This document shows positions 1,025 through 1,512 of a stretch of 14,968 nt of DNA, in pieces. Positions within the stretch are counted from its first letter, which is position 1, and every line of letters starts with the position of its first letter. Both the position numbers and the translations under genes were made by a program. The DNA comes from a virus, in IMG/VR virus record IMGVR_UViG_3300010413_000285, one strand, 5' to 3'. Under the pieces are notes generated by a model, which worked only from the letters and a program-made list of their open reading frames with translations, was not told where the DNA came from and ran no database searches.

Positions 1025-1076
1025 TAATACCCAGGAAACACTGGGGCGTAACATAAACCTATAAAGGAGAGAACAA

Positions 1077-1361
1077 ATGACGTTTGAAGAATTCAAGGCT
1101 ACATTGCCTGAGTCCGTAACCAGTGACATGGAACGTCTGCTCGCGGTCTGTAAGGCTGCCGAGATCGAAGTACCTTTGTCTGAGAGATTCTACATTAAGA
1201 CTCACACGCCAAAGAAGAGCAAGAACAACCCTGAGCCTGAGCCCACTGAGTATGTGGTTATTCCGCATCCCCTCGGCGGTCGGGATTTCTGGGTGCGCAA
1301 GCAAGATTTCCCTGCTTTGTTGGAAGGTGCCAACAGTTTCAAGAGCAAGCTGGGCATCTGA
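1077..1361 (+). CDS. hypothetical protein (94 aa) in a GC-richer island
   Basis: Strong SD AAAGGAGAG 7 nt upstream of ATG. Codon usage shifts to GC-rich codons (CTG, GGC, CGG), unlike the neighbours. The antisense ORF 1059..1424 is judged spurious. Confidence 0.65.
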   Translation: MTFEEFKATLPESVTSDMERLLAVCKAAEIEVPLSERFYIKTHTPKKSKNNPEPEPTEYVVIPHPLGGRDFWVRKQDFPALLEGANSFKSKLGI

Positions 1362-1370
1362 CCCATTGGG

Positions 1371-1456
1371 CCACCTCGCCTCAAGTGGTTGGAGGTGTTT
1401 CCATAAAGCCTCGCCCCGTGGCATTGTAACGGGGCATCACACAATGCCGTGTGTGG
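1371..1456 (+). other. cluster of three hairpins with a mutually exclusive alternative pairing (possible terminator/attenuator-like element)
   Basis: Hairpin 1: CACCTC (1372-1377) / GAGGTG (1392-1397) followed by TTT. Hairpin A: GCCCCGT (1413-1419) / ACGGGGC (1429-1435). Hairpin C: CACACA (1438-1443) / TGTGTG (1450-1455). Alternative B: GGCATTGT (1421-1428) / ACAATGCC (1441-1448), which overlaps both A and C. Confidence 0.4.
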
Positions 1457-1512
1457 AAGCTAGTTCTAAGTGTTTTCAATCATTTTATTATACCAGAGAC
1501 AACAGATTCTAC

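Follow-up and report, generated by a model that had tools for sequence, protein, structure and literature searches.

A conserved region of RNA hairpins between two genes of an uncultured phage: a candidate for intercistronic punctuation

Introduction

Hairpins that lie between the genes of a polycistronic message are known from several systems, and these provide the frame for the locus described here: the spacer at positions 1362-1549 of a 14,968-nt stretch of virus DNA (IMG/VR record IMGVR_UViG_3300010413_000285), the whole of which is referred to below as the window. On the + strand, the spacer separates a GC-rich gene for a conserved 94-aa protein (1077-1361) from a YunG-like gene (1550-1900), and it contains a short hairpin with a nearly fixed loop, hairpin A (1408-1436), followed by a 101-nt inverted repeat, hairpin L (1436-1536). 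The closest described counterparts of hairpin L are RNase III hairpins, such as the early R-sites of phage T7 and the sib and N-leader hairpins of phage lambda. Like these, hairpin L is a long sense-strand stem between genes, spanning two or more helical turns, that would occur in read-through transcripts only and that shows compensatory change; moreover, as with lambda sib, an alternative transcript would be made without the full hairpin. Unlike the T7 sites, hairpin L has a near-perfect stem of 21-24 bp with a large apical part and no internal loop, and it overlaps a promoter.

Other described systems share parts of this architecture. The PeSL cassettes of T4-type phages (PMC2839356, PMC4122927) likewise place a stem-loop and a sigma-70-like early promoter at the boundaries of variable small accessory genes, but they are U-tract terminators found as repeated, near-identical copies, whereas the spacer has single copies, no U-tract, a hairpin that lies over the promoter, and an A loop common to unrelated phages. 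Repetitive extragenic palindromic (REP) sequences and other intercistronic stabiliser hairpins, which shape relative mRNA levels within an operon, resemble hairpin A in lying a few nucleotides past stop codons and in lacking a U-tract. REP sequences are, however, host-genome repeats mobilised by RAYT transposases, whereas the motif of hairpin A is nearly absent from bacterial genomes and carries a fixed loop and a 5' GCC. Miniature inverted-repeat transposable elements (MITEs) of the Correia and ERIC types resemble hairpin L in their length of ~100 bp, their terminal inverted repeats and their ability to fold as RNA, and they can carry promoter hexamers; hairpin L differs in its lack of dispersed copies, its orthologous position and its selected pairing. 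Finally, Rfam cis-regulatory families are, like hairpins A and L, short conserved structured elements in phage intergenic DNA, yet none of them matches.

Set against these systems, the spacer is read here as a conserved intercistronic RNA punctuation region acting on the + (mRNA) strand, a reading to which a probability of roughly 0.45 is given.

A long covarying hairpin on the transcribed strand

The structures of the spacer, together with their strand bias, conservation and covariation, are what the sequence analysis shows. On the + strand, the minimum free energy (MFE) fold of the 188 nt consists of three hairpins, hp1, A and L, at -73.9 kcal/mol (z -6.66), as compared with -63.7 kcal/mol (z -3.68) on the - strand. 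The + strand outfolds the - strand by 10-14 kcal/mol in four of five lineages, and the stems include G.U pairs on the + strand without A.C mismatches. This combination points to an RNA transcribed from the coding strand.

Hairpin L, which the initial annotation of this DNA had overlooked, dominates the fold. Its arms (1436-1463 and 1509-1536) pair on the + strand at -43.8 kcal/mol (z -7.79), as against -36.4 kcal/mol (z -5.56) on the - strand, and in the spacer MFE it absorbs a smaller hairpin, C, that had been proposed earlier. Its stem comprises 21 basal pairs conserved in the consensus, extended to a run of ~24 in the window MFE, plus an apical stem. The alignment used to follow it represents five independent lineages (the window and those designated L011, L017, L015 and L006), for which RNAalifold returned a consensus of A plus L; the equivalents of hairpin L in the latter four have z-scores of -6.2, -8.1, -7.6 and -3.5, respectively. 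Across 27 pairs, 95.8% of positions are paired and 13 pairs show double changes, a result reached in 0 of 500 shuffles, with slid controls at 25-55%. Within the basal stem, double changes affect 11 of the 21 pairs, and 96.6% of cells remain paired. Uninterrupted runs of 21-24 pairs occur in the window, L011, L017 and L015.

RNase III classically acts on stems of this kind, in which a read-through mRNA pairs perfectly over two helical turns. Hairpin L offers at least ~20 bp of double-stranded RNA on the transcribed strand, and it is the pairing rather than the sequence that has been conserved. The hairpin is thus likely to be a site at which a double-strand-specific, RNase III-type enzyme processes the read-through RNA.

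It is also conceivable that hairpin L originated as a Correia- or ERIC-like MITE bearing a promoter, its fold being a by-product of the terminal repeats. The Correia elements of Neisseria are both RNase III substrates and promoter donors, and an element of ~100 bp with 28-nt inverted repeats at its bounds and a promoter at one end would suit such an origin. The multiple dispersed copies that characterize MITEs were found neither in the window, which holds no second copy, nor in IMG/VR, where a search with the arm pattern TTGCCATAYGYGGCATT gave matches at chance level only and none with a partner arm. The hairpin instead occupies a single orthologous locus, where it evolves by compensatory changes, and no target-site duplication is visible. 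On this evidence, a mobile-element origin seems scarcely probable.

A putative embedded promoter and a variable downstream gene

The right arm of hairpin L contains the -35 element and spacer of a sigma-70-like promoter on the + strand (TTGCCA at 1513-1518, a 17-nt spacer and a TGn-extended -10, TATACT, at 1536-1541), which matches the consensus at 10 of 12 positions plus the TG and ranks second best in the window. The promoter is kept as TTGCCA-17-TATACT in L011 and as TTGCCA-17-TATATT in L017, and it is absent in L015 and L006. Since the latter two lineages keep hairpin L without TTGCCA-17-TATACT, the pairing appears to have been selected for its own sake.

Transcription from this promoter would be expected to start at 1547-1549, only 1-3 nt 5' of the ATG at 1550. 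The gene that begins there (1550-1900, + strand) matches the YunG-like family PF24585 (2e-07) over residues 8-89, and the onset of that match at residue 8 supports ATG 1550 as the start. The gene lacks a Shine-Dalgarno (SD) sequence (SD energy 0). As its ATG follows the -10 at a distance of just 8 nt, a message started at the internal promoter would probably have no leader. What follows the spacer differs by lineage, including the YunG-like gene, genes for 101-aa and 100-aa proteins, a metallophosphatase gene and others. The YunG-like gene itself is restricted to the window lineage, while L006, L008, L011 and L017 proceed directly to the metallophosphatase.

A variable gene placed after a stem-loop and a near-consensus promoter raises the question of whether the spacer is a PeSL-like terminator/promoter cassette acting mainly as DNA, where it would insulate its neighbours and serve as a recombination point for the shuffling of accessory genes, as in T4-type phages. 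Two further observations favour this idea: a second terminator and promoter pair occurs in the window at 12700-12775, and in L046, which also carries the motif of hairpin A, two copies of it are each followed by the same ~50 nt, including TATAAT. The stem-loop next to a sigma-70-like promoter and the variable neighbouring genes are thus both present. Known PeSLs, however, exist as many near-identical copies per genome, whereas A and L each occur once in 15 kb; neither has a U-tract; and hairpin L overlaps its promoter rather than standing before it. A recombination site would also have no need of compensatory evolution in a 21-bp stem. In its effect, the arrangement proposed here would resemble a PeSL-type insulator and promoter placed where genes are shuffled (PMC4122927), but the repeated copies and U-tract terminators of PeSLs are missing. 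A cassette of this type is therefore considered unlikely, although it deserves to be kept in mind.

Small hairpins and the case against a switch

The initial annotation had described the spacer as a set of mutually exclusive hairpins, possibly a terminator/antiterminator pair or else a small structured RNA, next to a near-consensus promoter. The individual hairpins that it named, hp1, A and C, do exist. Hairpin hp1 (1372-1377/1392-1397, + strand, followed by TTT to 1400) has a 6-bp outer stem, CACCUC/GAGGUG, and folds at -13.1 kcal/mol (z -1.27; equalled in 25 of 200 shuffles). It was found in the window and L017 lineages only, the latter having CAUCUCU/AGAGAUG in the same place followed by the same GUUUCCAUAAAGCC. 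A terminator scan of the window did not list hp1, which is followed by just three U, and it may be a weak terminator-like or 3'-protective hairpin. Hairpin C (CACACA/UGUGUG, 1438-1443/1450-1455, + strand) folds at -7.1 kcal/mol (z -1.39; 16 of 200 shuffles) and shows weak covariation. In folds of successively longer prefixes, which imitate co-transcriptional folding, C is present up to 1520 and hairpin L takes over from 1530; C is accordingly modelled as a local fold of the left arm of L that is expected to be only transient until the right arm has been transcribed. Set against shuffled controls, only hairpin A stood out from this group (z -2.66; 3 of 200), hp1 and C did not, and the segment spanning A and C reached z -1.76.

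Hairpin B is the alternative pairing of the A loop with the left arm of L. Its existence as a pairing with 1441-1448 was borne out, the octamer in the A loop, GGCATTGT, lying at 1420-1427 rather than at 1421-1428 as had been given. The notion that A, B and C form an attenuator or riboswitch-like switch controlling downstream read-through draws on this complementarity, in which GGCAUUGU (1420-1427) can pair with ACAAUGCC (1441-1448) at -10.2 kcal/mol in the isolated segment. Moreover, 91% of B cells are still pairable in relatives, and the 8-nt identity of the A loop and the L arm is unlikely by chance. Energetically, B is no competitive alternative, since forced B reaches -14.2 kcal/mol as against -21.7 kcal/mol for A plus C, a deficit of 7.5 kcal/mol, and hairpin L at -43.8 kcal/mol supersedes both. 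The pairability of B in relatives stays at shuffle level (113 of 500 for pairing, 111 of 500 for covariation), so that its covariation does not go beyond column conservation, and it arises because the conserved A loop shares GGCAUU(GU) with the arms of L. In L015, where the A loop has diverged and hairpin L has stayed, B is lost. With an intrinsic terminator taken as a G+C-rich hairpin that runs directly into at least five U in 8 nt, hp1 has UUU only, A, B, C and L have no U-tract at all, and the terminator scan listed none of the five. Finally, no Rfam riboswitch or leader family matched. The terminator/antiterminator idea thus falls away as barely credible, whereas the other half of the earlier proposal, a small structured RNA beside a promoter, has gained ground: related phage regions show compensatory changes in A and L, though not in B, and the promoter recurs in two further lineages.

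The octamer GGCATTGT occurs three times in the window (1420-1427, 1441-1448 on the - strand, and 1524-1531), all within 112 nt, where 0.67 occurrences would be expected in 15 kb. One of these lies between the -35 and -10 elements, and it is conceivable that the three are half-sites (the middle one inverted) of a DNA operator, at which a repressor shuts the internal promoter, possibly via looping. Two of the copies are, however, the paired arms of hairpin L and the third is the conserved loop of A; the complementarity of the arms spans 21-28 nt, well past a half-site; the stem of A covaries around a fixed loop, a pattern typical of a strand that folds and not of an operator acting as a duplex; and the core common to relatives shrinks to GGCATT. 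An operator is accordingly judged very improbable. The shared octamer might also represent a decayed second copy of the A motif in the right arm of L, or a loop-arm contact. The distance from the A loop to the right arm is 104 nt, and tandem copies of the motif elsewhere lie ~110-180 nt apart.

Hairpin A in its gene family

Hairpin A consists of a 5' GCC (1408-1410), a 7-bp stem (1413-1419/1429-1435), the loop GGCAUUGUA (1420-1428) and a 3' A, all on the + strand, and the window holds a single covariance model match to it, of 45 bits. It is present in eight lineages of the 94-aa gene family, where the stems vary (CCCCGU/ACGGGG, CUCCGU/ACGGAG, CCCUGU/ACAGGG and GUCCCGU/ACGGGAC) around a nearly fixed loop, GGCNUUGUA. 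It is absent in L219 and L221, in which the next gene abuts, and in L105. In L019, the 94-aa gene ends the transcription unit and a canonical hairpin plus U-tract terminator replaces A, a positional logic that was counted in favour of a punctuation role.

Some further pairings and origins were considered for the hairpin. In L005 (3286-3316), the 11 nt that precede A, GUUACAAAGCC, perfectly complement the loop and first stem bases, GGCUUUGUAAC; the alternative hairpin formed by this 11-bp complement wins the MFE there but has no general covariation support. For a pseudoknot between the 5' flank and the loop, the counts spoke neither for nor against: the nucleotide preceding GCC is complementary to loop position 4 in 16 of 36 instances, with ~13 expected (a hand count), and only GCC/GGC is constant. 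Mimicry of a tRNA-Tyr anticodon arm (UUGUAA) was rejected as incompatible with the covarying CCGU/ACGG stem. A coding origin of the invariant 13-mer (GTG GCN TTG TAA, with N as wobble) was likewise set aside, as the frame of the 13-mer with respect to the preceding stop codon takes all three values and the window has no ORF ending at it; the resemblance to boxA, RAT and RegA sites was too weak.

A candidate boundary motif in other phages

Hairpin A proved to be a local instance of something wider. The pattern GCCCGNNNNNGTGGCNTTGTAAC matched 36 IMG/VR contigs, and a loop-free pattern, GCCCGNNNCCGTGGCNNNNNAACGG, matched 110 stretches, of which ~6 would be expected by chance on an estimated collection size of ~50 Gb. 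As sequence patterns were used to retrieve these sets, unbiased evidence comes only from positions that the patterns did not specify. The consensus begins with a 5' GCC, continues with a covarying stem, in many cases bulged by 1 nt, and a loop of GGC-WUNRWA, and closes with a 3' A, the loop consensus GGC-W-U-N-R-W-A coming from the loop-free matches. The lower stem, which lies outside all search patterns, covaries through CG, UA, GC, AU and UG pairs, with no unpaired rows in the bulged set, a similar picture in the unbulged set and 0-2 unpaired rows overall; this was matched in 0 of 500 shuffles.

The motif lies on the gene strand and usually starts 13-19 nt past a stop codon. Its carriers are mainly T7-like contigs, in which it stands between the scaffold gene (or inserted psbA, gifB-like or RlpA-like genes, or small genes) and the capsid gene. 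Some contigs carry it in duplicate, and six loci have a tRNA located 80-150 nt downstream of it. Within L116 (2325-2526), two copies flank a tRNA-Trp, the second only 3 nt past the tRNA, between the RlpA-like and capsid genes; in L098, three copies each stand directly before an AAGGAG SD and a start codon. Among 185,579 scanned genomes of bacterial species there were 2 matches, both on contigs of metagenome-assembled genomes (MAGs), at least one of them phage-like. One such contig, the 41-kb L114 (JBIKLC010000084.1, from a MAG labelled Rubrivivax), contains the motif along with psbA and a capsid gene of T7-like type, and it has the look of a cyanopodovirus genome from fresh water that was binned with a bacterial MAG. 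As a side observation, the non-coding stretch before the capsid gene of T7-like carriers also contains an abiF RNA (RF03085), as in L057 (8242-8278, - strand) and L066 (2728-2764, - strand), and, in L034 (3777-3831, + strand), a Glutamine-II riboswitch before a gifB-like peptide.

The motif has no counterpart in Rfam 15, in which no family was found for A or L (with E up to 10 in the window and at the gathering score in 15 motif-bearing contigs), and a literature search for the invariant 13-mer found no relevant paper containing it. A BLAST query with the 41-nt motif gave noise only; BLAST is too insensitive for a 17-mer, so that absence from cultured phages is unproven. In the cultured cyanophage Syn5 (L112, NC_009531, ~19,755-19,790; locus 3508-3540), the hairpin GCC-uac-CCGA-GGCUAAUAAUA-UCGG-ua, aligned by eye, stands directly after scaffold gene 38. 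The covariance models did not detect it, and it appears to represent the motif in divergent form. A tRNA-like GGTTCGATTCC element (~3600-3630 of the locus) shares with it the 260-nt gap that precedes the Syn5 capsid gene. A covariance model search of the scaffold-capsid regions of S-CBP2 and P-SSP7 found no motif.

A motif in such positions could conceivably be a promoter, or promoter-proximal element, for a phage RNA polymerase, or a translational operator for a phage protein. The three L098 copies directly before an SD and start codon would suit either role, as would the tandem arrangement seen in T7-like contigs ahead of capsid genes and tRNAs; and the AT-rich loop plus ACGG loosely resembles positions -4 to +3 of T7-group promoters and the GGCA..GTAA of the Syn5 promoter. 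The published promoter of the Syn5 polymerase, ATTGGGCACCCGTAA (PMC3950665), has no match within 2 mismatches in the 6.5-kb scaffold-capsid stretch that includes the motif-like hairpin. Its absence there argues against a phage-polymerase promoter role, as do the covariation of the stem, which would be unexpected for a duplex promoter, the occurrence of one copy per ~10 kb in most T7-like contigs, and the lack of any sign of a T7-like polymerase in the 15-kb window. Only two mapped polymerase promoters are known for Syn5, and both lie elsewhere. A promoter or operator role for A is thus improbable. Hairpin A is instead, and somewhat tentatively, viewed as an instance of an undescribed, phage-specific structured RNA motif that would mark gene boundaries in polycistronic transcripts, for example upstream of the capsid module or next to phage tRNAs. 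Its reader would be some conserved factor, for which a nuclease, an RNA chaperone and the ribosome are examples.

The GC-rich gene upstream

The gene 5' of the spacer (1077-1361, + strand) encodes a conserved 94-aa protein of no assigned function with an invariant HPLGGRDFWVRK core. The earlier view of it as a GC-rich island was sound: its GC is 0.51 and its GC at third codon positions (GC3) 0.62, as compared with means of 0.397 (standard deviation 0.033) and 0.349 (standard deviation 0.068) in the other 26 ORFs. The sliding-window GC maximum falls within the gene, and just 1.2% of 285-nt windows are equally GC-rich. The SD sequence, AAGGAG (1064-1069, + strand), 7 nt 5' of the ATG, had been called the strongest in the window; with an anti-SD duplex of -8.7 kcal/mol, it ranks third, after those of genes 2868 (-10.6 kcal/mol) and 6457 (-9.3 kcal/mol).

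The further suggestion that the gene is a separately acquired moron was not upheld. Ten homologue clusters with 67-84% identity were retrieved. A metagenome scan added two informative lineages only, and searching IMG/VR at the protein level with the 94-aa and YunG-like sequences yielded no relatives. The contigs of the homologues are syntenic, mostly with the same metallophosphatase downstream, and in all retrieved relatives the gene sits in the same block rather than occurring sporadically. No promoter-like site is present in 1025-1076 and no canonical terminator lies downstream, so the gene lacks a promoter and terminator of its own. Although its composition is atypical in the window, the GC3 of the homologues is also raised (0.39-0.65, versus 0.30-0.40 in a neighbouring gene), and the rise is common to all of them. 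Third-codon identity of the homologues to the window is 34-48%, which amounts to saturation. An excess kept in every homologue despite saturated synonymous sites appears to have been maintained in the family rather than left as a scar of transfer, which argues for selection over recent transfer. Given the strong SD as well, the simplest reading of the high GC3 is codon selection acting on a gene that would be highly expressed.

AlphaFold2 gave a confident model of the protein (pLDDT 89), and family and structure searches of Pfam, PHROG, PDB and BFVD returned no match. An apparent ~330-nt insertion 5' of the gene in L001 turned out to be merely a gene-calling difference. An antisense ORF of 121 aa (1059-1424, - strand) covers the entire gene and is probably a by-product of its GC richness. 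In the 52-nt spacer 5' of the gene lies a small hairpin, CCCAG-gaaaca-CUGGG (1030-1045), at which an Rfam 'freshwater-2' match fell far below threshold (19 bits versus a gathering score of 49.9).

The wider window

Every sizeable ORF of the window lies on the + strand. Recognizable products include a metallophosphoesterase, a SPASM/radical-SAM-like protein, a Nudix hydrolase and an exonuclease-like protein, and there are tRNA genes for Arg-tct (8032-8107), Leu-caa (9177-9264) and Asp-gtc (11392-11470); mechanically called ORFs beginning at 8047 and 9193 overlap tRNA genes, and their starts are probably spurious. The phage behind the window is an uncultured, tRNA-carrying one, apparently large, from which the window would represent an early or accessory region, to judge from these genes. 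A blastn search with 900-1700 against cultured phages gave no nucleotide match. The last ORF (12794-14968, + strand), truncated by the end of the window at a length of at least 725 aa, resembles major vault protein (Pfam MVP_shoulder 3.4e-22, Vault_3 2.3e-10). Just 5' of it stands the cassette at 12700-12775, a canonical hairpin with a U-tract (z -2.9) followed by TTGTCA-17-TAACAT, which is of the textbook type, in contrast to the spacer at 1362-1549. Finally, an AU-rich 16-bp hairpin (6417-6458; segment -20.8 kcal/mol, z -2.7) spans the GGAGG SD of gene 6457 and may mask translation of that gene.

A model of intercistronic punctuation

In the mechanism proposed for the spacer, transcripts from further upstream would traverse the GC3-rich, highly expressed 94-aa gene, after which hp1 and A would fold; as neither has a usable U-tract, RNA polymerase would carry on. 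Hairpin L would form upon completion of its right arm, presenting ~21-24 uninterrupted bp, and an RNase III-type cut within it would part the upstream message from that of the downstream genes. Hairpin A (and hp1) could then remain as protective or marking 3' hairpins of the abundant 94-aa message. Meanwhile, the internal promoter would independently feed the downstream genes with an RNA that lacks hairpin L and is leaderless at the YunG-like ATG. Hairpin A, as the local copy of a wider gene-boundary motif, would probably be recognised by a factor that processes or stabilises the RNA. The architecture thus predicts four activities, namely cleavage, stabilisation, promoter activity and leaderless initiation.

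Several considerations weigh against this model. The absence of A in four lineages (L019, L105, L219 and L221) indicates that it is not essential to the gene, and its invariant loop suggests a specific ligand. The triple octamer leaves room for a role in DNA binding or in pairing between the A loop and an L arm, and the L098 copies before SD sequences would fit a translational operator or promoter-like role as well. The promoter scan of the window as a whole did not exceed chance, with 47 found versus 42 expected. Finally, RNase III specificity is not predictable from sequence alone.

For the locus itself, the analysis puts a simpler architecture in the place of the speculative riboswitch-like switch, namely a proposed processing hairpin together with an internal and probably leaderless promoter, and it recasts the GC richness of the upstream gene as a probably selected trait of a conserved gene rather than a scar of transfer. 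More broadly, the A motif appears to be previously undescribed; it numbers more than 100 instances among contigs of uncultured viruses and has no counterpart in Rfam. Polymerase promoters are very scarce in Syn5 and other marine phages of the T7-like type, and it is a puzzle how long transcripts are made to yield suitable relative levels of the scaffold, capsid, tRNA and host-derived (psbA) genes. A covarying hairpin at precisely these boundaries would be a concrete candidate for the signal, and a Syn5 copy would allow it to be tested in a culturable system.

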